Assembly: GCA_009015555.1 (NCBI GenBank)
Contig: GCA_009015555.1_3613.1
Reading direction: 5' to 3' (one strand)
DNA: 64,000 nt
DNA from: a phage
Under the pieces are notes generated by a model, which was not told the origin of the DNA, made no database searches, and saw nothing but the letters and a program-made list of their open reading frames with translations. This document shows positions 19,270-32,702 of the stretch, one piece after another (position 1 is the stretch's first letter; the number at the start of each line of letters is the position of its first letter). The position numbers and the translations under genes were made by a program.

Positions 19270-20160
19270 ATGATTCGTGCATATTTAGGCGGAAGTCAGT
19301 TGGACATCGAGTTCAGCACATTTGCCGGGGGCGAGAGAAACGTCCTCATCAAGGGTTTCCAATGGCCCAGTCCGTTCAATGCGGATCTGAAAGAGAAGAT
19401 GCCAGAAGGTAAAGACCTTGTTGTCTACGCCCATGTTGACAGTTCAGATGCCATCATGGACCTGCTGCTGTTTACCGACGCATTCAACCGCATGGGTCGA
19501 GGCACAGGCAACCAGGTGAAGAAGGTCTGTTATGTGCCATACATCCCGTATGCCCGTCAAGACCGAGTGATGGTTCCTGGAGAACCGCTGTCGTCGGCAG
19601 TGTTTGGAACACTTATCAACCTGTGTGGATTTGACCGTATCATTGTTGATGACCCGCACTCAGATGTGTCTCCGTCACACATCAAGAACGTTGCCATTTT
19701 CGAACAATATGAACTGGCCTTGGATATTCTTGGCCCGGGCTTCTTCGACGATGCCGTTATCGTAGCTCCGGACGCCGGGGCAATCAAGAAGGTCACGAAG
19801 TTGGCTCAGAAGGTCAACCACCGTGAAATCGGGGTTGGGACCAAGCATCGTGACCTTATGACCAATAACATCACTGACACGACTTATGCCGGGCCGGATG
19901 TTAATGGTAAGCGTGTCATCATGGTTGATGACATTTGCGACGGAGGTCGTACATTTATCGAGCTTGGTAAGGTTCTCCGTGCCAATGGTGCGAAAGAGGT
20001 TGTTCTGTACACCACGCACGGGATTTATTCCTACGGCGCGGATGTGTTTAAGGACGTTATTGATGAGGTTTACTCCGCCTATCCGTGGATGAAGAACCTG
20101 GAAGGCCGAAACGAAAATAATATTTTCAAATCTGTTGACAAGATGGTTGAGTTCAAGTAA
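19270..20160 (+). CDS. PRPP synthetase (Prs)-family phosphoribosyl-pyrophosphokinase; candidate ADP-ribose pyrophosphate synthetase (Adps) of a NARP1-type pathway
   Basis: Type I PRTase/Prs motif VIMVDDICDGGRTF and Prs-like N-terminal half (PYARQDR); strong RBS GAGGAGAGAGAT-ATG. Confidence 0.75.
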   Translation: MIRAYLGGSQLDIEFSTFAGGERNVLIKGFQWPSPFNADLKEKMPEGKDLVVYAHVDSSDAIMDLLLFTDAFNRMGRGTGNQVKKVCYVPYIPYARQDRVMVPGEPLSSAVFGTLINLCGFDRIIVDDPHSDVSPSHIKNVAIFEQYELALDILGPGFFDDAVIVAPDAGAIKKVTKLAQKVNHREIGVGTKHRDLMTNNITDTTYAGPDVNGKRVIMVDDICDGGRTFIELGKVLRANGAKEVVLYTTHGIYSYGADVFKDVIDEVYSAYPWMKNLEGRNENNIFKSVDKMVEFK

Positions 20161-20211
20161 TATTCACAACGTTCCGGGGCACATTGCCCCAATTTAACTG
20201 AGGAGATTTAT

Positions 20212-22002
20212 ATGTTACATAACGACCTGCCTATCCTGTTTGCTGACTGGTACAAACCGAGCCATATTTCCATGTACAGCAAACAGTCTGAGATCGTACA
20301 AGACAACATGACCCCACGCTCAAGCAAACACTTTCAGCACTTTTCTGACAGTGACCAGCGCGTCATGTCTGCTGGCCTGCAAGGCTTTATTAAGTGGTTC
20401 CTGATTGAACACTTCAACCGTGAGTTCTTCGGTCGTCCGAAGGAAGAAGTTATCGGGGAGTTCAAAGAGATCTGTGACCTGGCGATCGGCCCAGACATGG
20501 TTGAAACGTGGGGCTTCGAAAAGCTGCATGACCTGGGCTATCTGCCTGTTGAAATCCGCGCCCTGCCGGAAGGTACTCTTTCTCCGGTACAAGTGCCTCT
20601 GTTCACAATTCAGAACACGCACCCGGACTTCTACTGGCTTCCTAACTACCTGGAGTCAGTGATCTCCTCTGAAAACTGGAAAACCGTAACTACGGCAACC
20701 ATTTTCTGGCAGTATCGTAAGCTGGCTGAACTGTGGGCGCAGAAAACCTGCGACAACAACCTGCACGTCCCGTTCCAGATTCATTGCTTCGCTTATCGCG
20801 GCCAGGCTGGCACTCACGATGCGGCCCAGTCTGAACTGGGACAACTGATGAACTCTCAGGGCACCGACACCATCCCGGCGATCCTGTATGCAAACCGTTA
20901 TTACGGTATGAAAGGCAAGTTCGTATCCGGCTCCATCCCGGCATCCGAGCACAGCGTTGCAACAACGAACATCGGGTTCATCATCGGACGCCTCCGTTCT
21001 GAGCATCCGGAAATGTCGCTGGATGACCTGCGTTTCCACGCAGAAGTCGAGTTCCTGCGCCGATACATCACTGAAATCTTCCCGAAAGGTTTCGTGTCTT
21101 ATGTCGGCGACAGTTATGACTGGTTCCGCCTGATCACTCAGGGTGTTCGTATCCTGAAAGACGAAATCATGGCCCGTGATGGTCGTGTGGTATTCCGCCC
21201 GGATTCCGGCGTACCGGAAGACATCATCTGCGGCACACTGGACTGGCGTAAGATTGAAGACCTCGACACGGCAGGTACTCTGGAACGCGCTGCCAATTGG
21301 GCACTGGAAAGTGCCGAAGATGAAGTTCGTGAGAACACCCCGCACGGTGAATGCGGTGATGAATCCGTTGAACGTTACTTCCTGTTCGATGGCGATCTGT
21401 ACCTGATGAAGGGTGAGATTGACTGGAACCGTCACGACAAAACGTATTACTACATCGACGGTCGCCGTGTTCTGTCTTACGAAAAGGCAGAACTCACTGA
21501 TGAGCAGAAAGGTTCTGTTGAACTGCTGTACGATGTGTTCGGTGGCGACCTGAACTCCAAAGGCTATCGTACTCTGGACACCCACGTCGGCCTGATTTAC
21601 GGTGACTCCATCACCGTTGCTCGCGCCAAAGAGATCTTCGAGCGCCTGGAAGCAAAAGGCTTTGCATCGAACAACGTTGTGTTCGGTGTCGGTTCCTTCA
21701 CCACCCAGTTCAACACTCGTGATTCTCTGGGTCAGGCAGTCAAGGCGACAGGCGCGGTTATTGACGGTCAGCAGATCATGGTCGTCAAAGAGCCTAAGAC
21801 CGACCTCGGCAAGAAGTCTGCTCAGGGCTTCCTGAAGGTTGTTCGTGGTGAAGACGGTGAACTGAAGCTGGTTGATAACCTCCAACTGGAGCAAGTCAAC
21901 GATACCGACAATGAACTGCGTGTGGTTTTCCGTGACGGCGTTCTGCTGGTTGACGAAACGCTGACTGAAATCCGTGAGCGTGTCACAGCAAACCTGAAAT
22001 AA
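20212..22002 (+). CDS. Nicotinamide phosphoribosyltransferase (NAMPT/NadV) family protein; candidate nicotinamide ADPR transferase (Namat)
   Basis: 596-aa NAMPT-family translation immediately downstream of the Prs-like gene; RBS GAGGAG; no NMN adenylyltransferase seen in window. Confidence 0.8.
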   Translation: MLHNDLPILFADWYKPSHISMYSKQSEIVQDNMTPRSSKHFQHFSDSDQRVMSAGLQGFIKWFLIEHFNREFFGRPKEEVIGEFKEICDLAIGPDMVETWGFEKLHDLGYLPVEIRALPEGTLSPVQVPLFTIQNTHPDFYWLPNYLESVISSENWKTVTTATIFWQYRKLAELWAQKTCDNNLHVPFQIHCFAYRGQAGTHDAAQSELGQLMNSQGTDTIPAILYANRYYGMKGKFVSGSIPASEHSVATTNIGFIIGRLRSEHPEMSLDDLRFHAEVEFLRRYITEIFPKGFVSYVGDSYDWFRLITQGVRILKDEIMARDGRVVFRPDSGVPEDIICGTLDWRKIEDLDTAGTLERAANWALESAEDEVRENTPHGECGDESVERYFLFDGDLYLMKGEIDWNRHDKTYYYIDGRRVLSYEKAELTDEQKGSVELLYDVFGGDLNSKGYRTLDTHVGLIYGDSITVARAKEIFERLEAKGFASNNVVFGVGSFTTQFNTRDSLGQAVKATGAVIDGQQIMVVKEPKTDLGKKSAQGFLKVVRGEDGELKLVDNLQLEQVNDTDNELRVVFRDGVLLVDETLTEIRERVTANLK

Positions 22003-22006
22003 TTTC

Positions 22007-22029
22007 AGCCGCCCTTCGGGGCGGTTTTT
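22007..22029 (+). terminator. Rho-independent terminator
   Basis: agccgcccttcggggcggttttt immediately after NAMPT-like stop. Confidence 0.7.
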
Positions 22030-22047
22030 AACTATCCGGAGGATGAA

Positions 22048-22206
22048 ATGAAACTGAATGAATCTCAGTATCTGGCGGCAAGAAAGGCGTTTGTGGAAAA
22101 TTCCGTATTCGATAATATCCGTATGTGGGTGGAAGATGGGCAAATGTCAGAGGATGAGCTTCGGGTGTTGATTGGAGAGATCTTCGCTCCCGTGGAGGTA
22201 GAATGA
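22048..22206 (+). CDS. small hypothetical protein (52 aa)
   Basis: ATG with GGAGGATGAA RBS; not in ORF track (<60 aa). Confidence 0.3.
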   Translation: MKLNESQYLAARKAFVENSVFDNIRMWVEDGQMSEDELRVLIGEIFAPVEVE

Positions 22207-22394
22207 GAAACCCAGTTGCACGAAACGACTTTAACCGGGCAGCAACGCACCCAGATCGCTCTAAGCGGCCTCAAAAGACTGTAGACGAGGGTTTGCTCGA
22301 CTACTTTGCAGAAAACGCTGAGAACGTCGCATACAGCGAATATGAACGTGCCTCTACAAACGCTCCGGGCGCTCCCCTTCCACCCGGGCGTTGA
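22203..22394 (+). CDS. hypothetical protein (63 aa)
   Basis: ORF with ATGA overlap to upstream small ORF. Confidence 0.3.
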   Translation: MRNPVARNDFNRAATHPDRSKRPQKTVDEGLLDYFAENAENVAYSEYERASTNAPGAPLPPGR

Positions 22395-22453
22395 CTATCA
22401 TTAAGTCCTCCAGTAAAATGACCATATCACTTGATTAACTTACTGTTGGACTT

Positions 22454-22705
22454 ATGAATCCCTATAAACTCACTCTCAGCTTTATCACCCCTGATTACAC
22501 TTCTGAAGAACATTGTGAGCATTACCCTACCCTTCAAGACGCTCTCGATGACGCCGACGATTTAGCTTTCAGTACCGTCGGATTCCCTCTTGAGGATTGG
22601 CAAAGTGTTGACTTTGGTGAAGGTAATTACTTATACTCGTTTTACCCGAACGAGGTTGATAAAACCTCTCGCTATAAACTGGCAATCCTGAAGGAGGAAG
22701 TTTGA
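22454..22705 (+). CDS. small highly acidic protein (83 aa)
   Basis: Asp/Glu-rich composition (e.g. DALDDADDLAF, EDWQSVDFGEG). Confidence 0.45.
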   Translation: MNPYKLTLSFITPDYTSEEHCEHYPTLQDALDDADDLAFSTVGFPLEDWQSVDFGEGNYLYSFYPNEVDKTSRYKLAILKEEV

Positions 22706-22938
22706 GAAAGTTCCATTACTTAGTCACCATCGACCTGGATGATGACCACCTTGAGCAGATGGTTAAGGACCAGCCTGACCTTATCGACTGCGAGACGTTC
22801 GAAGGAGTAGCCCCGGAAAACTTCGTAAGTGTTTTCGCAGAGAAGATGACCGAAGGTATTGACGAGGCTTTACAAGAAGGTCTCGGTGACGCTGGCAACA
22901 GCAAAGTTAAAACTATTTTCGCAGGAGAATGCAAATGA
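22702..22938 (+). CDS. small highly acidic protein (78 aa)
   Basis: Asp/Glu-rich (TIDLDDDHLEQMVKDQPDLIDCETFEG); ATGA-coupled to upstream acidic ORF. Confidence 0.45.
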   Translation: MRKFHYLVTIDLDDDHLEQMVKDQPDLIDCETFEGVAPENFVSVFAEKMTEGIDEALQEGLGDAGNSKVKTIFAGECK

Positions 22939-23161
22939 ACAGCACCGAATTAGTGATCGGCTACGGAGAAGGCATTCGTAGCGAAGAGGACTGGGGAGTT
23001 TTCGATGAGCGCCCGGACCTTTAATCACCTGCCGGGGGCGGATGACCCCCGGAACCACGAATATAAGGGATACATCTGCCTTTGTTTTGTGTGCGGAAAC
23101 AAATATCTTGGTCCAAAACGCTCGGTTATGTGCAATCTTTGTGCAAACGGTAAAAAGCCTG

Positions 23162-23190
23162 TTGACAAAGAGTAGAGCTACAGGTAATCT
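23162..23190 (+). promoter_or_regulatory. Candidate sigma70-type promoter upstream of tRNA array
   Basis: TTGACA at 23162-23167, 17-nt spacer, TAATCT at 23185-23190. Confidence 0.4.
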
Positions 23191-23477
23191 GAATATGTCC
23201 CGAACGAGATGACAATCAAGTAGGTGGATGGATAAGTCAACCCGGTCTGTTAAACGACCAAAGTGCCATTGCGGTTCGGGTTGAGTTCAGCCGGATAAAC
23301 AGCGGCTCCATCGACGGCCTCTGGAATAGCGACGGTTGCTTCAGGTCTCACGACCACCCGTTACGTGAAACACGCTTTTGCTGGACGAGAAGGGGAAGTC
23401 AACCCCACGGGCATACGTCCTCTGCCCATTTCTCCCTCCCCCGGAGCGTAACAACTACCGGACTTGCTGGGAGACTT

Positions 23478-23553
23478 GCTGGATTAGCTCAGTAGGTAGA
23501 GCGCCTCACTTGTAATGAGGATGTCGCGGGTTCGATTCCTGCATCCAGCACCA
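23478..23553 (+). tRNA. tRNA-Thr (anticodon TGT)
   Basis: Cloverleaf read by eye: acceptor gctggat/atccagc, anticodon loop cttgtaa, T-loop ttcgatt, CCA encoded. Confidence 0.8.
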
Positions 23554-23559
23554 GATCAT

Positions 23560-23636
23560 GCAACGTTGCCGGAGTCTGGTAACGGCTCTCGCTGCAAACG
23601 AGATGAGCACTGGTTCGAATCCAGTACGTTGCTCCA
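23560..23636 (+). tRNA. tRNA-Cys (anticodon GCA)
   Basis: Acceptor gcaacgt/acgttgc, anticodon stem tctcg/cgaga, loop ctgcaaa, T-loop ttcgaat, CCA. Confidence 0.75.
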
Positions 23637-23637
23637 A

Positions 23638-23714
23638 GCGCCTTTGGTCCAATTGGTAGAGGCACTACATTCAAAATGTAGGGGTTCCCAGTTCGAATCT
23701 GGGAAGGCGCACCA
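23638..23714 (+). tRNA. tRNA with CAA anticodon (Leu by anticodon) but short variable arm
   Basis: Acceptor gcgcctt/aaggcgc, anticodon stem ctaca/tgtag, loop ttcaaaa, T-arm cccag-ttcgaat-ctggg, CCA; only 5-nt variable region. Confidence 0.6.
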
Positions 23715-23730
23715 AAATTTATGTAACCTA

Positions 23731-23759
23731 TTGACATAGTGTAATTATACTGCTAATAT
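23731..23759 (+). promoter_or_regulatory. Sigma70-type promoter for the small gene embedded in the tRNA array
   Basis: TTGACA 23731-23736, 17-nt spacer, TAATAT 23754-23759, then RBS and ATG at 23786. Confidence 0.6.
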
Positions 23760-23785
23760 GGATACACTAATTCAATGGGGGCATT

Positions 23786-24160
23786 ATGAGCAAGGCTGCG
23801 ATTGTAACTCGTAAGCGTGGTCGCCCAAGCAAAGAAGAGAGCACAGCAATCGCCCTTGAAAAGGCAATGCTTGATCTCCGAGGCGAATTGGCCCGTCTGA
23901 CGCCGAAGGCCATTCATACTCTCGAAAACCTGCTCACAACAGGCACAGAGAAAGTGAAGGAAACCACGGCGAAGTATATCCTTGAGCAGGCGAAAGAGGT
24001 TAACAACCTCTATACTGAAGAGGATAACGAAGACGACGCAGCAGGCGGCACAACATCTGCCTCTTCTGAAACTCACGCTGGTTCTTCTGACGAGATGAAA
24101 AATGCCATCCCGTTGACAACCCAGATTCGTGAGTATAAAGCAGTAGGCGAAGATGATTAA
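23786..24160 (+). CDS. small protein with AT-hook-like RKRGRPSK motif (124 aa)
   Basis: Own promoter, RBS and downstream hairpin; basic N-terminus, acidic Ser/Thr-rich C-terminus. Confidence 0.5.
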   Translation: MSKAAIVTRKRGRPSKEESTAIALEKAMLDLRGELARLTPKAIHTLENLLTTGTEKVKETTAKYILEQAKEVNNLYTEEDNEDDAAGGTTSASSETHAGSSDEMKNAIPLTTQIREYKAVGEDD

Positions 24161-24162
24161 CT

Positions 24163-24190
24163 GGAAGGCTCCCGAAGGAGCCTTTATTAG
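24163..24190 (+). terminator. Terminator-like hairpin
   Basis: aaggctcccgaaggagcctt hairpin followed by tattag (weak T tract). Confidence 0.4.
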
Positions 24191-24325
24191 AAGTTCTCTT
24201 TTGACGGGCACTTGTTAACGACCCGCAGAATGACGACGGTGTACAACGGCGTTTGATGGCGAGGAAGGTCTATAGGGATCAGCGCAGATCCTTGGATGTC
24301 AGGTGAGCCGTACAAAAGAGAATTT

Positions 24326-24413
24326 GGGGAGTTATTTCCGTAGAGGTAGCGGTGCAGACTGTAAATCTGTTGTCATTGCGACTCGGGTGGTTCGACTCCA
24401 TCACTCCCCACCA
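24326..24413 (+). tRNA. tRNA-Tyr (anticodon GTA), long variable arm
   Basis: Acceptor ggggagt/actcccc, anticodon loop ctgtaaa, T-loop ttcgact, CCA. Confidence 0.75.
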
Positions 24414-24419
24414 AATTAT

Positions 24420-24514
24420 AGTAGGATGGCTGAGTGGCTTAAAGCAGCATCTTGGAAAGGTGTCGGATCAGGTAACCCCTGGTCCCGGGAGTTCAAATCT
24501 CCCTCCTACTGCCA
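24420..24514 (+). tRNA. tRNA-Ser (anticodon GGA), long variable arm
   Basis: Acceptor agtagga/tcctact, anticodon loop cttggaa, T-loop ttcaaat, CCA. Confidence 0.7.
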
Positions 24515-24518
24515 GACC

Positions 24519-24595
24519 GGATCGTTAGCTCAATTGGTTAGAGCAAGGGACTTTTAATCCCGAGGTTCGGGGTTCGAGTCCCTGACGGTCCACCA
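24519..24595 (+). tRNA. tRNA-Lys (anticodon TTT)
   Basis: Acceptor ggatcgt/acggtcc, anticodon loop cttttaa, T-loop ttcgagt, CCA. Confidence 0.75.
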
Positions 24596-24760
24596 GAAAG
24601 GAAGAGGGTCCAAGCTGGTAATGCGAGAGGCGAGTCCTCAGACCAAAGCCCAGATGGAGGCCACCCTAAAGTCGTCCAACCGAAGGTCCCTGATTGAGTA
24701 ATACTTCCCCGCTTGTCGGGTACAGTTCTCAGTCACACCGGAAGGGGCGCACCCTATAAT

Positions 24761-24836
24761 TGACGGTGAGCATATAAGGACATGCGGGGGCCTGTTAAGT
24801 CCAGGATAGCTGGTTCGAATCCAGTACCGTCAGCCA
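24761..24836 (+). tRNA. tRNA-Asn (anticodon GTT)
   Basis: Acceptor tgacggt/accgtca, D-stem gcat/atgc, anticodon loop ctgttaa, T-loop ttcgaat, CCA. Confidence 0.7.
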
Positions 24837-24945
24837 ATTTGGTTCCGACAAGGTGACGGCGCACCCCGGAGCGACGCTGAAAGATGCAGGCCGACGAACA
24901 CATACGTGTACTTAATCAATAGTCATTGCGATGGCTATTCGTTAA

Positions 24946-25023
24946 GTCCTGGTAGACAAACTGGATAAAGTCACCACCCTTTCAAGGTGGGGTTTGAGGG
25001 TTCGATCCCCTCTCAGGACGCCA
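24946..25023 (+). tRNA. tRNA-Glu (anticodon TTC)
   Basis: Acceptor gtcctgg/tcaggac, anticodon stem ccacc/ggtgg, loop ctttcaa, T-loop ttcgatc, CCA. Confidence 0.75.
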
Positions 25024-25117
25024 ATCTTTTAGGTCGGTAGATTAATGAGCAAAGGCCGCTCGCTGGATTCCAACCCCAGTTCAAGGCGTTCGATTCGTCA
25101 CCTTCCTGCCAAATTCA

Positions 25118-25193
25118 GGTCCTATGGTATTAGCGGTAAACATACTCGCCTGTCACGCGAGAGTCACGGGTTCGAATCCCGTTAGGACCGCCA
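25118..25193 (+). tRNA. tRNA-Asp (anticodon GTC)
   Basis: Acceptor ggtccta/taggacc, anticodon stem ctcgc/gcgag, loop ctgtcac, T-loop ttcgaat, CCA. Confidence 0.75.
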
Positions 25194-25200
25194 CTTCAAA

Positions 25201-25275
25201 TGGGGATTAGCTCAGGGGTAGAGCGCACAACTGATAATTGTGAGGTCGGTGGTTCGAAACCACCATCCCCAACCA
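25201..25275 (+). tRNA. tRNA-Ile (anticodon GAT)
   Basis: Acceptor tggggat/atcccca, D-arm gctc-aggggta-gagc, anticodon loop ctgataa, T-loop ttcgaaa, CCA. Confidence 0.75.
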
Positions 25276-25345
25276 AACAGCCCCTCCCGGGATTGGACCG
25301 GGTTAACGGCAATCGCACACTGAGGCGTCTTCCGGGGGAACAATA

Positions 25346-25422
<77 letters not shown>

Positions 25423-25428
25423 AATTAT

Positions 25429-25503
25429 TGCGAGGTAGTTCAGCGGTAGAACAGGGGTTTCATACGCCTCATGTCGGCAGTTCGATTCTGCCCTTCGCAA
25501 CCA
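25429..25503 (+). tRNA. tRNA-Met (anticodon CAT; initiator, elongator or Ile-lysidine type not distinguished)
   Basis: Acceptor tgcgagg/cttcgca, anticodon loop ttcatac, T-loop ttcgatt, CCA. Confidence 0.7.
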
Positions 25504-25509
25504 AATCAT

Positions 25510-25587
25510 GCTCCAGTAGCCCAATTGGTAGAGGCACTTGATTTAGGATCATGTCAGCGATGAGTTCGAATCTCTCCTGGAGTACCA
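25510..25587 (+). tRNA. tRNA with TAG anticodon (Leu by anticodon), short variable arm, weak T-stem
   Basis: Acceptor gctccag/ctggagt, anticodon stem cttga/tcatg, loop tttagga, T-loop ttcgaat with only ~3 bp T-stem, CCA. Confidence 0.5.
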
Positions 25588-25593
25588 CATAAA

Positions 25594-25667
25594 GCGGGCA
25601 TGGTATAGTGGTTGTGCCTTAGCCTTCCAAGCTAATGAGTCCGGTTCGATCCCGGATGTCCGCTCCA
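25594..25667 (+). tRNA. tRNA-Gly (anticodon TCC)
   Basis: Acceptor gcgggca/tgtccgc, anticodon stem ttagc/gctaa, loop cttccaa, T-loop ttcgatc, CCA. Confidence 0.75.
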
Positions 25668-25740
25668 ATTCACGGTGAGTCACTGCCGTTAAGTGTGAAG
25701 TTAAAAATGCCCGTGGTGATCGGGTTATCTCACCCAGTGT

Positions 25741-25816
25741 AGGGGATTAGTTTAATTGGTAAAACATCGGGTTTTGATCCCGACATCGCGAGGTTCGAAT
25801 CCTCCATCCCCCGCCA
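25741..25816 (+). tRNA. tRNA-Gln (anticodon TTG)
   Basis: Acceptor aggggat/atccccc (A1-C72 mismatch), anticodon stem tcggg/cccga, loop ttttgat, T-loop ttcgaat, CCA. Confidence 0.7.
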
Positions 25817-25898
25817 CATTAATGCTCATTAGCTCTTGTCAGTGGAACTCGAACCCTTAGAGCAGGCGACACAGACGTGTGTTTTAGTGAGCATCAAT

Positions 25899-25974
25899 GT
25901 GGCCTTAATTCAGCAGGTAGAATCCCCGGTTGTGAACCGGGCAGTCGTGGGTTCAAGTCCCACAGGTCACCCCA
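25899..25974 (+). tRNA. tRNA-His (anticodon GTG)
   Basis: Acceptor gtggcct/aggtcac, anticodon stem cccgg/ccggg, loop ttgtgaa, T-loop ttcaagt, CCA. Confidence 0.75.
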
Positions 25975-25978
25975 ATCT

Positions 25979-26071
25979 GGAAGATAGGGCGTAGTGGTAC
26001 GCACCCGGATTTGAACCCCGGCCCGCTGTGGCGACCCCACGGTGATAGTTCGACTCTATTATCTTCCGCCA
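25979..26071 (+). tRNA. tRNA-Ser (anticodon TGA), long variable arm
   Basis: Acceptor ggaagat/atcttcc, anticodon loop tttgaac, long variable arm, T-loop ttcgact, CCA. Confidence 0.65.
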
Positions 26072-26092
26072 CCCCTGATCATAAGGCAAACT

Positions 26093-26785
26093 ATGTTAGA
26101 AATGTTAACAGTGGGTAAATACACCCCTAGTCCTATAATTTCTAGCCCTATGGATGCTTATTTTGAGGGCGAGAGGAATAATAAATACGGCACTGTTGAG
26201 TGGGTTGTTCCTCAAGGCGTCACCTCAATCTGCTGTGTAGTGATAGGCGCAGGATCTTCTGGCAGAAGCGGCGGTCTTTCTTGGAGAAACAACATTCCAG
26301 TTACACCTGGTGAAAAACTTAAAATGCAGGTTAACTCCACAGCCAGCGCCCTCTTGAGAGAGACAACTATCCTTTGTGCTGCCCAGTGTGGCGGCAACGG
26401 AGGAAAAACATATAACTCTGTGAACGACGGTGGAGGCAATGCTGGACAATCACCACATGGTAGAGGTGGTGCTGGCGGCTACACCGGGAATGGTGGTGAT
26501 GGGCATACGTTCACAGGTGGTCCAGGACCAGGGTCCCCAGGTTCAGGTGGCGGCGGCGGCGGAGGCGCAGTTGTGTATCTGAACGGATCATTGACACCAA
26601 CTGTCTGCGGCGGAGTCGGCATGTATGGACAGGGGTCGAATGGTGGCGCTGATAACAGCGCCGGATATCCAGGCTCCGGCGGTTCTGGAACAAGATACGG
26701 AAGAGCAGTCGATGGTTATGGTGTTGTCAGGGTTGTGTGGGGAAATTATTCATTCCCAACAAATGCCCCGAGACCGAAATCCTGA
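26093..26785 (+). CDS. glycine-rich hypothetical protein (~230 aa) embedded in tRNA array
   Basis: Start taken at MLEMLTVGKY (track ORF start at 26042 lies inside tRNA-Ser); Gly-rich GGxGG runs and C-terminal GYGVVRVVWG. Confidence 0.5.
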   Translation: MLEMLTVGKYTPSPIISSPMDAYFEGERNNKYGTVEWVVPQGVTSICCVVIGAGSSGRSGGLSWRNNIPVTPGEKLKMQVNSTASALLRETTILCAAQCGGNGGKTYNSVNDGGGNAGQSPHGRGGAGGYTGNGGDGHTFTGGPGPGSPGSGGGGGGGAVVYLNGSLTPTVCGGVGMYGQGSNGGADNSAGYPGSGGSGTRYGRAVDGYGVVRVVWGNYSFPTNAPRPKS

Positions 26786-26856
26786 TAGGGATGGTCCCTA
26801 CGAGGATCGTCTTTTGCTCAGTGGTACTCAGCATTTACTTAGTATTCAAACAATAT

Positions 26857-26943
26857 AGAAGAGTGGCGAAATAGGTAGCCGCACCGGACTGCTAATCCGG
26901 GGTCCTTCGGGGCCTGAGAGTTCAAGTCTCTCCTCTTCTGCCA
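26857..26943 (+). tRNA. tRNA-Ser (anticodon GCT), long variable arm
   Basis: Acceptor agaagag/ctcttct, anticodon stem ccgga/tccgg, loop ctgctaa, T-loop ttcaagt, CCA. Confidence 0.75.
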
Positions 26944-26948
26944 AGCAT

Positions 26949-27024
26949 GGAACTGTAGCTCAGTTGGTAGAGCGGTTGCCTGAAGAGCAGCGCGTCAGCG
27001 GTTCAAATCCGTTCAGTTCCACCA
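26949..27024 (+). tRNA. tRNA-Phe (anticodon GAA)
   Basis: Acceptor ggaactg/cagttcc, D-arm gctc-agttggtaga-gagc, anticodon loop ctgaaga, T-loop ttcaaat, CCA. Confidence 0.8.
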
Positions 27025-27066: not shown

Positions 27067-27091
27067 GCCCTCCTTCGTGGAGGGCTTTTTT
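27067..27091 (+). terminator. Rho-independent terminator closing the tRNA array
   Basis: gccctcc-ttcgt-ggagggc hairpin followed by tttttt. Confidence 0.65.
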
Positions 27092-27130
27092 ATTTCTGGT
27101 TTCGGTGATAAAATACCCAAAGGAGGTATT

Positions 27131-27502: not shown

Positions 27503-27816
27503 TGAGAAAATTTATTCTCGGAATGTTCATGGTTCTGGCACTGTCAGCGTGCAGCAACAAAGACAGAATCCCAGAGGTTGCCTTCAAGGGCACCACGGTA
27601 GAAGACCTTGTAGATAAGCCGGACCGAGAGCTAATGCGTAAGGCTCCACCAAAGCAGTACCTCAAGAAAGGTACAGACAACGGTGAAGGCGCGGTTGTTA
27701 TAAGTAACAACAACTTGCGGGCAGCGACAGTCGAGCGCAGGCTCGAAGACCTCCAGCAATACGTCTGCAACCTCTTCCAAGACCCAGTTGGGGAAGTCTG
27801 CGTAAAGGGTAAGTGA
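27502..27816 (+). CDS. o-spanin-like (Rz1-like) outer-membrane lipoprotein
   Basis: Lipobox LALSAC after signal peptide; ATGA overlap with upstream i-spanin-like gene. Confidence 0.62.
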   Translation: MRKFILGMFMVLALSACSNKDRIPEVAFKGTTVEDLVDKPDRELMRKAPPKQYLKKGTDNGEGAVVISNNNLRAATVERRLEDLQQYVCNLFQDPVGEVCVKGK

Positions 27817-27824
27817 TTGTGCCA

Positions 27825-27858
27825 AAAGGCTCTCCATACGTGGAGGGCCTTTTCTTTT
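27825..27858 (+). terminator. Terminator-like hairpin with T-run
   Basis: ggctctcca-tacg-tggagggcc followed by ttttctttt; lies inside the TTG-initiated track ORF, supporting the later terminase start. Confidence 0.5.
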
Positions 27859-27921
27859 AGGTCACTTTGTGATAATATACCTACTATCGAAGCATGTCAA
27901 TTTATTTATTCAGGAGAGTTA

Positions 27922-29409
27922 ATGTCCGCTACATTCGCACCCGCGAGTCGTAAGCAACAGATGGTTCTCGAATCTAAAGCACAGATCCTCATCATGGGTG
28001 GCGCAGCAGGCTCCGGCAAATCTTACCTGCTCCAGTTGATGCCCCTGTTGATCATTGATGATCCTCGTACAGCTTGCATCATGTTCCGCCGTACAGTGCC
28101 TCAGATTCGTGGTCAGGGCGGTCTGTTCGACAAAGCGAAAGATATTTACAACCAGCTTCCTCCGGTCGTCAAGCCTAAGTTCAAAGAGAACGAGATGATT
28201 GCGACCTTCCCGAACGGGGCGACGGTGAAGTGGCAGTCCATGCAGCACATCAACGATAAGTATAACATCCAGGGTCTGGAATTTACTTTCATTGGTGTGG
28301 ATGAAGGGACCCAGTTTGACTGGGAACAGCTTGAGTACATGATGTCGCGTTTGCGTTCAAACTCAAAGTACCCTTCCCGTATGGTCGTATCTTGTAACCC
28401 CGACCCGGATCATAAGCTCCGGGAAATGATTGACTGGTATCTGGATGAGAATGGTCTGCCGATCCCTGAACGTGACGGAGTTATCCGTTGGTTTGTTCGT
28501 GTGGATGACAACTACATCTGGGGTTCCACCAAGGAAGAACTGAAGCAACGCTTCGGTAAGAAATGTAAGCCTGTTTCATTCAGCTTCATCTCTTCCACCA
28601 TTTACGACAACCCTCCGATGCTGATCAACAACCCGGAGTACCTTGCCCAGTTGGAAGGTCTGAACGATGTTGACCGCGCCCGCCTGCTTCACGGCAACTG
28701 GGACGCTCGCCCGGAAGGTGCAAACTATTTCAAACGTGAGTTCCTGAAAGAGGTGGATTGCCTCCCGATGAACGTCACGAAAGTCCGTGCTTACGATAAG
28801 GCAGGTACGGAGCGATCCACAGCAAACAAAACCCCTGACTTTACGGCGGGGATTGGTGTGGCCCGCGATGACGACGGATTTTATTACCTGTATGGAAACT
28901 ACCATGACGATTTCATCGACAATGGTGAGTGGTCCACTGGCACCGCCGGGCGCTTCTGTAAGAAAGCTGGCGAACGTGACGTGATTATCACGAAGCAGGC
29001 AATGCTGGACGGTGACGACACAATCGTCATTTTCTCCGTTGACCCCGGTCAGGCAGGTATCTCCGAGTTCACCACGTCATCCCGTGATCTTATCTCGAAA
29101 GGGTATATGGTAGAGAAAGACCCGACACCCGGTAACAAATCGAAGCTAACCCGCTTCTCCCCGTTTGCCCAGTTGGCACAGAACGGATTTGTCCGGATCG
29201 TTAAGAAGTCATTCCCTCTGGACACGTACAACGCATTGATGAAAGAACTTGAGTCTTTCAACGGTGAACGTTCTACCGGGTCCCGTAAGGATGACTGGGC
29301 GGATGCCGTGGCATCAGGAATTAACTTCCTGGAGAAGACCGAGGTCGTCCGCGCCGTCGCTATTCCTCGACCAAATGCCCCTACTCTGTACGCCTCACGT
29401 CGTTATTAA
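27922..29409 (+). CDS. Terminase large subunit
   Basis: Walker A GGAAGSGKS, Walker B-like FIGVDEG, nuclease-domain SCNPDPDH; RBS AGGAGA before ATG at 27922. Confidence 0.85.
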   Translation: MSATFAPASRKQQMVLESKAQILIMGGAAGSGKSYLLQLMPLLIIDDPRTACIMFRRTVPQIRGQGGLFDKAKDIYNQLPPVVKPKFKENEMIATFPNGATVKWQSMQHINDKYNIQGLEFTFIGVDEGTQFDWEQLEYMMSRLRSNSKYPSRMVVSCNPDPDHKLREMIDWYLDENGLPIPERDGVIRWFVRVDDNYIWGSTKEELKQRFGKKCKPVSFSFISSTIYDNPPMLINNPEYLAQLEGLNDVDRARLLHGNWDARPEGANYFKREFLKEVDCLPMNVTKVRAYDKAGTERSTANKTPDFTAGIGVARDDDGFYYLYGNYHDDFIDNGEWSTGTAGRFCKKAGERDVIITKQAMLDGDDTIVIFSVDPGQAGISEFTTSSRDLISKGYMVEKDPTPGNKSKLTRFSPFAQLAQNGFVRIVKKSFPLDTYNALMKELESFNGERSTGSRKDDWADAVASGINFLEKTEVVRAVAIPRPNAPTLYASRRY

Positions 29410-29427
29410 TATCACAGGGGATATGCC

Positions 29428-30951
29428 GTGTCAAGAAAACGTAATCGTAACCGCTCCGTTAAAGTGGCTAAGGCCACCAGCGAGCAACTTAACGTATCCC
29501 GTATGCGTATGAGTGAGCAAGGGACCTTTGCTCTGGCTAAGGTTCAGGTTGACTCCGAACGTATGAAGGCCGAAGAGATTCGCTGGCCCAACCTGATTGG
29601 TACAGTCGAGTCAATGAAGCAGGACGCCACCGTTGCGACGGGCCTTGACATGCTGTACACTTTCGTGGAGAAGGCGTTCAAGGATTTCAAGGTAATCCCT
29701 GGCGAATCTGAGGAGTCCAAAAAGGCTGCTAAGTTTGTTGAGTATTGCCTGAAGAACATGGAAGGTCAAACCCTTCGTCAGTTCGCCCGTGACGCCGCAA
29801 CATTCAACGAGTATGGCCTGTCAGTTGTGGAGAAAGTCTACACTCAGGTTACTGTTGGGGAATACATCGGCAAGTACAAGGTAAAGAACCTTGCTTTCCG
29901 ACCGCAGGCGTCCTTGAGCCGGACAAACCCGATTGTTTACAATGAGGACGGCTCTGCCATCATCGGTATTAAACAATCCCTATCTGCGTTCCAGAACTAC
30001 ACAGCCAGTGAGATTGGTGTTGGTGGCGTATCCACCCGCATGAGTGATGTCATTATCCCAATCAATCGTGTCATGCTGATGAACACGGGAGGCTCTTCAT
30101 CTCAGGCTCTCGGTGTCTCTCCTCTGGTAGGGTGCTACCGAGCGTGGCGTGAAAAGATTCTGATTGAGAACCTTGAGGTTGTTGGCGCAACCAAGGACAT
30201 GGGTGGTGTGATCGAATTGAAGATCCCTTCCCAGATCCTGAACAAAGCTGCAATGGACCAGTCTTCTCCTGAAGCAGAAATGGTCCGTGGCCTGATGTCT
30301 GACGCTGCAAATGCCCACTCCGGTGAGCAGTCATTCTTCATGCTGCCATCTGATACAAAGGATAACGCCCCTCAGTATTCAATGACCCTCAAGGGCATCG
30401 ACGGGATGGGTAAGCAGTACAGCACCGCACAGTTGATCAGTGACCGTAAGAAGTCAATCCTTGATCGTCTGGGCGCTGGCTTCATCAACGTGGGTAACGA
30501 CAAAGGCGGTTCTTACAACCTGTCTGAGTCCAAGCAGACTATCCACACCCAGTTTGTTCAACGTGTAAACGAGATCATTCTGGAAGCTCTGAACGAAAAC
30601 CTGCTGCCACAATTGCTGGCTCTGAACGATATGCGCCTCCCGGAGACGGAGATGCCATACGTCAAGGCTGGGGAAATCGTGGACGTGGACATGGAAGGTT
30701 TCTCCAAGGCGATTCAGCGTATTGGTGCCGTTGGATACCTGCCGAAAACTCCGAAGGTTATCAACCGTGTACTGGAAGTTCTGGGCATTGATGAGAAGAT
30801 TGAGGAAGACATTTCTCAGGAAGAACTCATGAAGCTGTTGGGTGAAGATACGAGCCGCGCCGGAGACGGCATGACGAAAGGATCTTCTGGTAACGGTACT
30901 GGCAAAATCTCTTCCACAAGAGATAATTCAGCGGCTAATTTGGATAATTAA
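29428..30951 (+). CDS. Portal protein (putative; GTG start)
   Basis: ~500-aa ORF immediately after large terminase, size and position typical of portal. Confidence 0.65.
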   Translation: MSRKRNRNRSVKVAKATSEQLNVSRMRMSEQGTFALAKVQVDSERMKAEEIRWPNLIGTVESMKQDATVATGLDMLYTFVEKAFKDFKVIPGESEESKKAAKFVEYCLKNMEGQTLRQFARDAATFNEYGLSVVEKVYTQVTVGEYIGKYKVKNLAFRPQASLSRTNPIVYNEDGSAIIGIKQSLSAFQNYTASEIGVGGVSTRMSDVIIPINRVMLMNTGGSSSQALGVSPLVGCYRAWREKILIENLEVVGATKDMGGVIELKIPSQILNKAAMDQSSPEAEMVRGLMSDAANAHSGEQSFFMLPSDTKDNAPQYSMTLKGIDGMGKQYSTAQLISDRKKSILDRLGAGFINVGNDKGGSYNLSESKQTIHTQFVQRVNEIILEALNENLLPQLLALNDMRLPETEMPYVKAGEIVDVDMEGFSKAIQRIGAVGYLPKTPKVINRVLEVLGIDEKIEEDISQEELMKLLGEDTSRAGDGMTKGSSGNGTGKISSTRDNSAANLDN

Positions 30952-31020
30952 TCCGGTCGTGAAAACAACCTGTTGCAAAACAGTCAGTTCAGTGCTAAAA
31001 TAATTATCACGGGAGCAATG

Positions 31021-31596
31021 ATGGAAAACATTACCCTTTCCGACCTTCCTTCACAAACTAATCTGACTCGAATCCAAAAGAGTCGGTTTGTGAAAAAGGC
31101 CAACGACCTGTTGAAGCAGGGCTTTAATAAAGCTGCTGCCGTTAACGGGGCCGTTGGCTCCGTCCTCGTCCAGAAAGCCGCTGGTGAAGAAGAGATGATT
31201 TCTTATGAGATCATCTACGAACCTGACACCCCGGACCTTCACGGACAGTGGATGTCGAAAGAGACCTTGGTAAAGGCTCAACAGGATTTCAAAAAGGCTC
31301 AGGAACTCGGTGCTGTCACGGAGAACCTGTATCACCTTTTCGACACCGACTCTTGGAAAATCGTTGACCACTGGATTCAACCAGAGTTCGACGTTAATGT
31401 AGCGCAAACTGGCGAAGTAATCAAGGCCGGATCTTGGGTTGCAAAAGTTCAGTACACCCCTGAGACATGGGAGTTGAAGAAGGCCGGACTTATCGGTGGC
31501 CTGTCACTTCAGTGCGGCGGAATGCTGAACGAAGAGACGAATGAACTTTCCGAACTGGACTTCAGTATTTCACTCGAAGAAGAGGAAGCCAAATGA
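31021..31596 (+). CDS. head morphogenesis protein (possible prohead protease or scaffold-associated)
   Basis: Position between portal and scaffold-like gene; no catalytic motif confirmed. Confidence 0.35.
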   Translation: MENITLSDLPSQTNLTRIQKSRFVKKANDLLKQGFNKAAAVNGAVGSVLVQKAAGEEEMISYEIIYEPDTPDLHGQWMSKETLVKAQQDFKKAQELGAVTENLYHLFDTDSWKIVDHWIQPEFDVNVAQTGEVIKAGSWVAKVQYTPETWELKKAGLIGGLSLQCGGMLNEETNELSELDFSISLEEEEAK

Positions 31597-32702
31597 TCAA
31601 GACGTGGATCGAGAAAGGTCGCCAGATTAAATCTCGCGGCATTGCTCTCACTCACCGAGATCAGGGCTACAGCGCGAATAACCGCCACGTCAGCCTCCTG
31701 ACCAAATCCGAAGTTGACCCTGAGAAACTCACGGTTGACATCATCAAATCTCTCGAACAGGTCCAACTCACCATTTCTATGGAAGAGTACCTGCGCCGCT
31801 TCTTCCACCTGTGGAGTGGAGATGCAGAGTTGCTCACCAAAGTGCTGGGCATGAAGACCGAGTTCGAACAGTCCATCGAAGACAACCCGCCGGATGATGA
31901 TTCCTGGGAAGCAGAATGGAATGAGCGCCACCAAGAATACTTGGAACAGAAGCTCTCCTCTGTCACCCTTATCAAGAAAGCGAAGGCTGGCGATGAACTG
32001 TCACTGCTTGAACAGTTTGAACTTATCAAGGCCCGTAAGGACTTCGAAGAAGGTTGCCGTGACCTCGGCATCGACTTCGGTGATGATTCAACTGTAGTCA
32101 AACCCGCCACTGAAGTCAAGCCTGTTGTGGAAACGCAAAAGTCTGTGACTCCTGTAGCGCCAACTGAAAGCTCCGCTGGAGCGACTATCAAACCCGACGA
32201 GGAGATTCCCGTGGAGAAAGAAGTTGATGTAACCAAATCCCAGCAGTTCATTGACCTGATGAAGGCCAACGAAGCTCTGGTGGCGCAGATGAAATCTATG
32301 GAAGGCACTCTTACCGCTGCCCAAGAGATCGTCAAGTCCCAAGCTGCTGCTAAACGTGCAATCGCCGTTGAGAAAGCCGCTGGCTTTAGCTTCGTAGCTG
32401 CTGACCAGCGCGATGTTGTTGCTGACGTTATCGAAAACCCGGCGCAGGCTGTTCTGGTGGCTGTACTGGAAAAAGCTGCTGCTGATCTGAAAGCGAAAGA
32501 CGAAGCTCTGGCTGCTAAAGATCTGGAGATCGAAGAAGTTAAAAAATCCTTCGCAAATGGCAAAGAAGTCGGTGCTGATGGCACTCTGACTGAAGTAGCC
32601 AAAGGTTCCGAAGATGCACAGGCCCGCCTGGACCGTGTGATCAAAGAACGCGCTGCGGAACTGGCGAAAGCCGCTAAATCCGCTGAATTTATTAACGCCT
32701 AA
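31593..32702 (+). CDS. scaffolding-like protein (Ala/Glu/Lys-rich, coiled-coil)
   Basis: Low-complexity acidic coiled-coil sequence upstream of capsid gene. Confidence 0.5.
   Translation: MIKTWIEKGRQIKSRGIALTHRDQGYSANNRHVSLLTKSEVDPEKLTVDIIKSLEQVQLTISMEEYLRRFFHLWSGDAELLTKVLGMKTEFEQSIEDNPPDDDSWEAEWNERHQEYLEQKLSSVTLIKKAKAGDELSLLEQFELIKARKDFEEGCRDLGIDFGDDSTVVKPATEVKPVVETQKSVTPVAPTESSAGATIKPDEEIPVEKEVDVTKSQQFIDLMKANEALVAQMKSMEGTLTAAQEIVKSQAAAKRAIAVEKAAGFSFVAADQRDVVADVIENPAQAVLVAVLEKAAADLKAKDEALAAKDLEIEEVKKSFANGKEVGADGTLTEVAKGSEDAQARLDRVIKERAAELAKAAKSAEFINA

Follow-up and report, generated by a model that had tools for sequence, protein, structure and literature searches.

It has been reported that bacterial glutamine identity resides in G73, U1-A72, G2-C71, G3-C70, G10 and U34-U38 of tRNA-Gln (PMC9976931, Table 1). 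Glutaminyl-tRNA synthetase (GlnRS) disrupts the U1-A72 pair upon binding, with Leu136 stacking between A72 and G2 and stabilising the open state, and the discriminating alternative at the first pair is G1-C72 (PMC1635274, PMC1865053). Among bacterial tRNAs, the classic case of an unpaired 1:72 that is functional is E. coli initiator tRNA-fMet (C1xA72, where x marks a mismatch), an amber-suppressor derivative of which is charged by GlnRS and shows good glutamine acceptance (PMC9976931, section 17). E. coli C carries U1-A72 together with G73 in all four of its tRNA-Gln genes. Among laboratory mutants of the su+3 tRNA-Tyr suppressor, classical genetics reportedly yielded a G1-to-A change that made exactly an A1xC72 end and gave glutamine acceptance, which would be a direct precedent for GlnRS liking such an end.

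Phages T4 and T5 both encode a tRNA-Gln(UUG) with G73. The T4 tRNA has the canonical U1-A72 and lacks an encoded CCA, whereas the first pair of the T5 tRNA is unpaired, as U1xU72 (L097) rather than the A1xC72 described below. The literature that we searched, with older subscription papers on T5 and T4 tRNAs left uncovered, contained no description of natural 1:72 mismatches in phage tRNA-Gln; on 1:72 and acceptor-stem variants it yielded studies of AtaT and of CdiA-CT variants, and an identity review.

A phage tRNA-Gln gene with A1 opposite C72

The window analysed here, a 64,000-nt stretch of phage DNA, carries a tRNA-Gln(UUG) gene on its (+) strand at 25741-25816 (AGGGGAUUAGUUUAAUUGGUAAAACAUCGGGUUUUGAUCCCGACAUCGCGAGGUUCGAAUCCUCCAUCCCCCGCCA), 76 nt long including the encoded G73 and CCA and supported by ARAGORN, Rfam and the minimum free energy (MFE) fold. 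The ARAGORN call had the same coordinates as an earlier, sequence-only reading of this DNA, and Rfam RF00005 scored it at 54.1 bits, above the gathering score of 29 (span 25741-25813). Arm by arm, the tRNA reads AGGGGAU UA GUUU AAUUGGUA AAAC A UCGGG UUUUGAU CCCGA CAUCG C GAGG UUCGAAU CCUC C AUCCCCC G CCA. Position 1 is an A (25741) that both ARAGORN and RNAfold left open opposite C72; C72 and the discriminator G73 were read directly from the sequence at 25812-25813 and are followed by the 3' CCA (25814-25816), which is genome-encoded in 18 of the 18 ARAGORN-called tRNAs of the cluster. The remaining acceptor pairs, 2:71 to 7:66, are G-C, G-C, G-C, G-C, A-U and U-A. The sequence-only reading was therefore right to place A opposite C72 in an aggggat / atccccc stem. 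Its description of the rest of the cloverleaf as near-perfect holds for the most part, except that C49 (25789) faces C65 (25805) in the T-stem and makes a second unpaired stem position. The MFE fold was a cloverleaf with positions 1 and 72 open and the centroid fold agreed, which ruled out a register shift or an alternative fold that would pair the acceptor end. A sequencing error was likewise ruled out as the source of A1xC72, since the two bases recur in several phage families, in genomes that were sequenced independently of one another. No open reading frame of at least 60 codons overlapped the gene on either strand, and the share of CAA among Gln codons in 42 long open reading frames of the window was unremarkable (37.5%).

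Apart from the literal U1-A72, which is absent, the glutamine identity nucleotides and the conserved tertiary nucleotides are intact. The anticodon UUG (positions 34-36, 25774-25776) lies in the loop UUUUGAU (25772-25778) and supplies U34, U35 and G36 along with A37 and U38; G73, G2-C71, G3-C70 and G10 (in the pair G10-C25) are also present. Compared with E. coli tRNA-Gln (glnU/glnV), the phage tRNA shares G73, G2-C71, G3-C70, G4-C69, G5-C68, G10 and the encoded CCA, and its anticodon loop is that of the E. coli UUG isoacceptor. It differs in having A1xC72 in place of the Watson-Crick pair of the four E. coli genes and in its 49:65 mismatch. Pairs 6:67 and 7:66, which are U-A and A-U in E. coli, are swapped to A-U and U-A.

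The window belongs to a Certrevirus (Vequintavirinae) phage near Cronobacter phage CR3. The stretch holding tRNA-Gly, tRNA-Gln and tRNA-His was 99.5% identical to CR3, and the wider 12 kb is a mosaic, with PBES 02 nearest at 93.6%. An annotated tRNA-Gln of CR3 is 98.7% identical to the window gene, with one substitution at position 49 (C in the window, U in CR3), and homologous genes (93-99% identity) occupy the matching place in the cluster of CR3, CR9, POP15, F1M1E and KaOmega, all with the identical acceptor end, AGGGGAU/AUCCCCC-G-CCA, A1xC72 included. The window gene is an ordinary phage tRNA-Gln whose homologue is already annotated in close relatives. In a sample made up of the window and seven relatives, A1xC72 was found in six of eight tRNA-Gln genes (the window and these five phages). 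The remaining two had A1xG72 (DU_PP_I) and U1.G72 (PBES02), so that none of the eight had a Watson-Crick 1:72. A1 was invariant across seven aligned Certrevirus sequences, 49:65 was unpaired in every copy, and 27:43 had gone from U-A to G-C by a double change. In Pectobacterium phage DU_PP_I (L005 696-771), positions 8-65 were 100% identical to those of CR3, and the 3' strand of the acceptor stem, GCCCCCG, was of the PBES02 type and gave A1xG72, A6xC67 and U7.G66; judged from these sequences, the DU_PP_I gene looks like a recombinant and is possibly impaired.

The gene lies within a phage tRNA cluster at 23478-27024 (+), which comprises the 18 ARAGORN calls and, at 24326-24410, a sequence annotated as tRNA-Tyr in CR3. 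Among the 18 ARAGORN-called tRNAs, tRNA-Gln alone had a mismatch in the acceptor stem. The tRNA-Tyr sequence is 100% identical to its CR3 counterpart, with the anticodon GUA and a long variable arm, and was called neither by ARAGORN nor by Rfam at the gathering threshold; the cluster probably totals 19 tRNAs, of which one has an atypical D arm. Two ARAGORN calls, tRNA-Asn(GUU) at 24761-24836 and tRNA-Ser(UGA) at 25979-26071, fell below the Rfam tRNA gathering score, and the latter occupies the place of the CR3 coding sequence CR3_263, which is absent from the window. An HNH endonuclease gene that lies between tRNA-Asn and tRNA-Glu in CR3 (L001 1880-2236) is missing at window positions 24836-24946; its presence in CR3 and absence here fit a mobile, homing-type insertion, as with segB among the tRNA genes of T4. 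In the window's cluster, tRNA-Leu(UAG) at 25510-25587 scored lowest in Rfam (44.1 bits); it has a G1.U72 wobble and six stem positions left unpaired by ARAGORN. In tRNA-His(GUG) at 25898-25974, G-1, normally needed by bacterial HisRS, is not genome-encoded: a T at 25898 precedes G1-C72, C73 and CCA. The same was seen in CR3, CR9, POP15, F1M1E and KaOmega, and about one third of the distinct tRNA-His in the IMG/VR loci described below had T or A at -1.

Both spacers flanking tRNA-Gln are of tRNA size (25668-25740, 73 nt; 25817-25898, 82 nt), and in each a terminal stem closes a multi-branch fold (z = -0.95 and -2.05, respectively). The upstream spacer contains a T-arm-like hairpin, CCCGU GGUGAUC GGG, and the 10 nt directly 5' of the tRNA (CACCCAGTGT) are conserved across Certrevirus; the spacers may represent tRNAs that have decayed, or structures that serve in processing. 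At 27067-27095 (+), about 40 nt past the last tRNA, a consensus scan alone picked out a GC hairpin followed by a T-run that resembles a terminator; the tRNA transcription unit probably ends there. According to the annotations of matching PBES 02 and phiTE regions, the cluster is bordered by NAD-salvage genes (nicotinamide phosphoribosyltransferase and ribose-phosphate pyrophosphokinase, 20000-23400) on one side and by the terminase/portal module (27800-32000) on the other.

The first pair of tRNA-Gln in phages and cells

A1xC72 is also found outside Certrevirus, in phages unrelated to that genus. The tRNA-Gln of Erwinia phage KEY (T5-like), of the Vibrio Demerecviridae VPG01, Ceto and VspSw_1, of Aeromonas phage AsFcp_4 (T4-like) and of Felix O1-like phages such as Escherichia phage HY02 all carry A1xC72, G73 and an encoded CCA, as in the window. 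For HY02, a 1-kb stretch around the gene matched 255 phage records, mostly Felix O1-like; another carrier, L131, had no relative in the phage collection. The AGGGGAU/AUCCCCC stem was identical to that of the window in most of these tRNAs, whereas the D, anticodon and T arms differed (73-84% identity over positions 8-65) and 49:65 was, unlike in the window, fully paired in most. Over positions 8-65, AxC tRNAs of different families were closest to tRNA-Gln with other 1:72 states, which argues that AxC has arisen or been exchanged several times; on this sequence comparison such repeated origin or exchange is probable.

We considered whether the two unpaired stem positions, 1:72 and 49:65, mark a tRNA drifting towards a pseudogene. 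The fold energy of the window tRNA was no better than that of shuffled sequences (z = -0.65), and the DU_PP_I relative, whose acceptor 3' strand no longer fits its 5' strand (A1xG72, A6xC67), would be in keeping with such decay. In 13 distinct AxC tRNA-Gln, which come from five or more groups of phages, however, every stem pair other than 1:72 and 49:65 was paired in 13 of 13 (49:65 in seven), with compensatory changes at 3:70, 6:67, 11:24, 12:23, 13:22, 27:43, 28:42, 31:39, 50:64 and 51:63. Furthermore, AxC persists in most of the sampled Certrevirus sequences and in hundreds of Felix O1-like genomes, the conserved tertiary and identity nucleotides of the window tRNA are in place, and its Rfam score is 54 bits. 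The pattern of substitution is that of a real tRNA under purifying selection, and on this covariation we rejected the pseudogene reading, to which we give hardly any credence.

For a survey of IMG/VR, the search pattern covered just the 3' half of the tRNA (GGTTCRANTCCNNNATCCCCNGCCA), leaving position 72 free and setting no constraint on the 5' strand. The survey so seeded returned 120 loci with 1433 tRNAs, among them 99 distinct tRNA-Gln. At 1:72 these had U-A in 40, A-U in 20, UxU in 25, AxC in 5, CxU in 3, a wobble in 5 and G-C in 1, and the first pair was therefore unpaired in 33 of 99. In the same loci, 1:72 mismatches were present in only 7 of 929 distinct tRNAs other than tRNA-Gln and tRNA-Met (Fisher p = 1e-29), and in 19 of 75 tRNA-Met, initiators included. 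The tRNA-Gln mismatches were confined largely to the first pair (33 at pair 1, 0-3 at each of pairs 2-7). In these loci tRNA-Asn and tRNA-Trp have weak first pairs too, and these are paired. "By-catch" tRNA-Gln lying outside the search pattern were mismatched at 1:72 in 3 of 29 cases. These results demonstrate that, among phage elongator tRNAs, 1:72 mismatches are concentrated specifically in tRNA-Gln. All of the tRNA-Gln mismatches in this survey contain a pyrimidine and, within the xGGGGAU family, C72 occurred only with A1 and A72 only with U1, a restriction that may partly reflect shared ancestry. We did not find this class-level pattern in the literature searched, although it follows naturally from known GlnRS biology.

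GTDB representative genomes were scanned with the pattern GGGGATT...ATCCCCYGCCA, which gave at least 120 stretches. The tRNAs called among the matches listed were 80 tRNA-Trp and 20 tRNA-Gln, the latter with A1-U72 in 19 and G.U in 1, and no tRNA among the GTDB matches listed had a 1:72 mismatch. For the GGGGAU/AUCCCCY-G73 acceptor, 30 of 40 distinct viral tRNA-Gln were mismatched compared to none of the 20 cellular tRNA-Gln among the matches listed (p = 2e-5), which came from other phyla, mostly as Firmicutes and Betaproteobacteria metagenome-assembled genomes. The contrast between phage and cell is thus suggestive, an indication and not a census.

First-pair energetics, probable charging and the mature 5' end

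The nearest-neighbour energy of closing 1:72 in this stem was about -0.9 kcal/mol for U-A, -1.3 kcal/mol for A-U and -4.0 kcal/mol for G-C; the "closed" energies that ViennaRNA assigns to the non-canonical AxC, UxU and CxU were disregarded as not meaningful. On these values a mismatch lies about 1 kcal/mol from the host state and the excluded G-C lies 3-4 kcal/mol away, steps that match the observed spectrum from weak pairs to mismatches and almost never G-C. The functional need would then be for an easily opened first pair that is not G-C, and A1xC72 may be such a pair, judging from the energetics and by analogy with the tRNA-fMet derivative that accepts glutamine. The sequence-only reading had remarked that an unpaired 1:72 is an identity feature in some tRNAs and could affect charging. 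For this tRNA we infer that the identity role stands: the mismatch sits in a glutamine identity element, the other elements are present, and such mismatches are concentrated in phage tRNA-Gln.

We consider it likely that the gene encodes a functional phage elongator tRNA-Gln(UUG), in which A1xC72 is one of the natural forms that the weak-first-pair identity element can take. Its transcript would be made together with the rest of the (+)-strand cluster; host RNase P would generate the 5' end at A1, and host GlnRS would charge the tRNA. Because the enzyme must in any case break 1:72 and fold G73-CCA back into its active site, an already open first pair would cost nothing extra in charging. A strong G1-C72 would be selected against, while phage tRNA-Gln genes would drift at 1:72 among U-A, UxU, A-U, AxC, CxU and wobble. 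The phage would thereby supply Gln-tRNA(UUG) during infection, as other phage tRNAs do.

This account takes A1 as the mature 5' end; the alternative is that the mature end differs, either by RNase P cutting between A1 and G2 or by repair or editing of 1/72, for example 5' editing templated on C72. The sequence-only reading had itself raised, against its own claim, a 5' end one nucleotide downstream that would leave the stem fully paired. RNase P prefers G at +1, and U-1 could wobble with G73 in most copies. On the other side, position -1 varies (12 U, 3 A) and the rest of the leader is unrelated from one phage family to the next, but A1 never changes. Other phage tRNA-Gln with the same acceptor stem pair A1 to U72, which makes A1 homologous to the true position 1. 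A start at G2 would, in addition, leave a 6-bp acceptor stem with a 5-nt 3' overhang. In E. coli, C1xA72 does not prevent correct processing of the initiator tRNA and, to our knowledge, no 5'-editing enzyme is to be expected in these hosts. We therefore hold a different mature end to be very unlikely.

An open 1:72 also invites comparison with initiator tRNAs. Unpaired 1:72 is the major determinant for Met-tRNA formyltransferase, G2-C71 and G4-C69 are minor ones, and formylation is independent of the amino acid (PMC9976931). The window tRNA has A1xC72 and three consecutive G-C pairs at 29-31:39-41 (G29-C41, G30-C40 and G31-C39), features that might allow formylation, resistance to peptidyl-tRNA hydrolase or a role in the P site. 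However, the determinants of initiator formylation include A73, C3-G70 and purine11:pyrimidine24 (PMC9976931), whereas the window tRNA has G73, G3-C70 and an elongator-type U11-A24, and its anticodon is UUG, not CAU. Compared with E. coli tRNA-fMet, it departs at the discriminator, at pairs 3:70 and 11:24 and in the anticodon, and its mismatch is oriented differently. The GGG/CCC run is, moreover, not conserved among the 13 AxC tRNA-Gln, with 31:39 being A-U or U-A in 6 and 30:40 being G.U in 4. Since three of the five initiator features checked fail, an initiator-like or formylatable tRNA was rejected; we regard it as scarcely credible.

Returning to the reading as an elongator tRNA-Gln with a weak first pair, A1xC72 would be tolerated in tRNA-Gln specifically and may be mildly favoured there; neutral tolerance and positive advantage are not separated by these data. 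C72 replaces the purine that is stacked by Leu136 of GlnRS, so charging might be worse rather than better. The unpaired 1:72 of initiator tRNA makes it a weaker ligand of EF-Tu and a poorer substrate of peptidyl-tRNA hydrolase, and by analogy the open end could carry costs for tRNA-Gln.

Acceptor-end nucleases and the meaning of an open end

The sequence-only reading had also suggested that the mismatch could affect resistance to nucleases that target the acceptor stem. Among characterised tRNases, the one known to cut within the acceptor stem of tRNA-Gln, between 71 and 72, is CdiA-CT EC869; it depends on G73 and acts best where the first pair is weak or mismatched (PMC9071432). The window tRNA-Gln has both G73 and a mismatched 1:72, which argues for sensitivity to this enzyme and not for resistance, so that the suggestion is unsupported, though not refuted. 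Six mismatches (A-A, G-A, U-U, U-G, U-C and C-A) are cleaved by CdiA-CT EC869 as well as wild type, and A1xC72 is not among them; the enzyme also favours substrates with a pyrimidine at position 1 opposite a purine at 72, and A1-U72 and G1-U72 are poorly cleaved (PMC9071432). With A1 and C72, the window tRNA runs against this latter preference.

These data bear on a further possibility, that A1xC72 has been selected as a poor substrate of an enzyme attacking the acceptor end of host tRNA-Gln, a CdiA-CT EC869-like tRNase or another toxin modifying that end, with the phage tRNA replacing the cleaved one. There is precedent for phage tRNAs whose altered sequences let them evade defences directed at tRNA (PMC10264068; PMC11464382; bioRxiv 10.64898/2026.07.10.737580), A1/C72 inverts the pyrimidine-1/purine-72 preference, and the mismatches occur in phage tRNA-Gln and in none of the sampled cellular tRNA-Gln among the matches listed. 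Nevertheless, weakness or mismatch of the top pair counts in favour of cleavage by CdiA-CT EC869, UxU, the commonest phage mismatch, has been directly shown to be sensitive (PMC9071432), and the strong determinant G73 is kept in the window tRNA. Our literature searches, furthermore, gave no defence system that hits the tRNA-Gln acceptor stem during phage infection, and the papers found on Schlafen, OLD and anticodon-loop escape held nothing on tRNA-Gln acceptor ends. Counter-defence of this kind therefore appears improbable.

It is also unlikely that phages, going beyond mere tolerance, have positively selected the unpaired 1:72 as an adaptation specific to their own tRNA-Gln. If so, one possible benefit would be faster charging by host GlnRS in the short time of infection; another would be a tRNA-Gln invisible to some host factor, so far uncharacterised, by which the U1-A72/G73 end of host tRNA-Gln is read. 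Phages would in that case have converged on several solutions, A1xC72 among them.

For this window, the meaning of the mismatch is small. The open end does raise a question of cost: it may matter for EF-Tu, peptidyl-tRNA hydrolase, formyltransferase and acceptor-end toxins, and phages have it where the cellular tRNA-Gln sampled do not. Taken more widely, the pattern amounts to a natural experiment, modest but clean, on an identity rule of the textbooks: phage tRNA-Gln freely swaps U1-A72 for mismatches and almost never for G-C, while the other elongator tRNAs in the same genomes stay paired. This speaks for a GlnRS whose requirement is that the first pair can be opened, and not that it be U-A.
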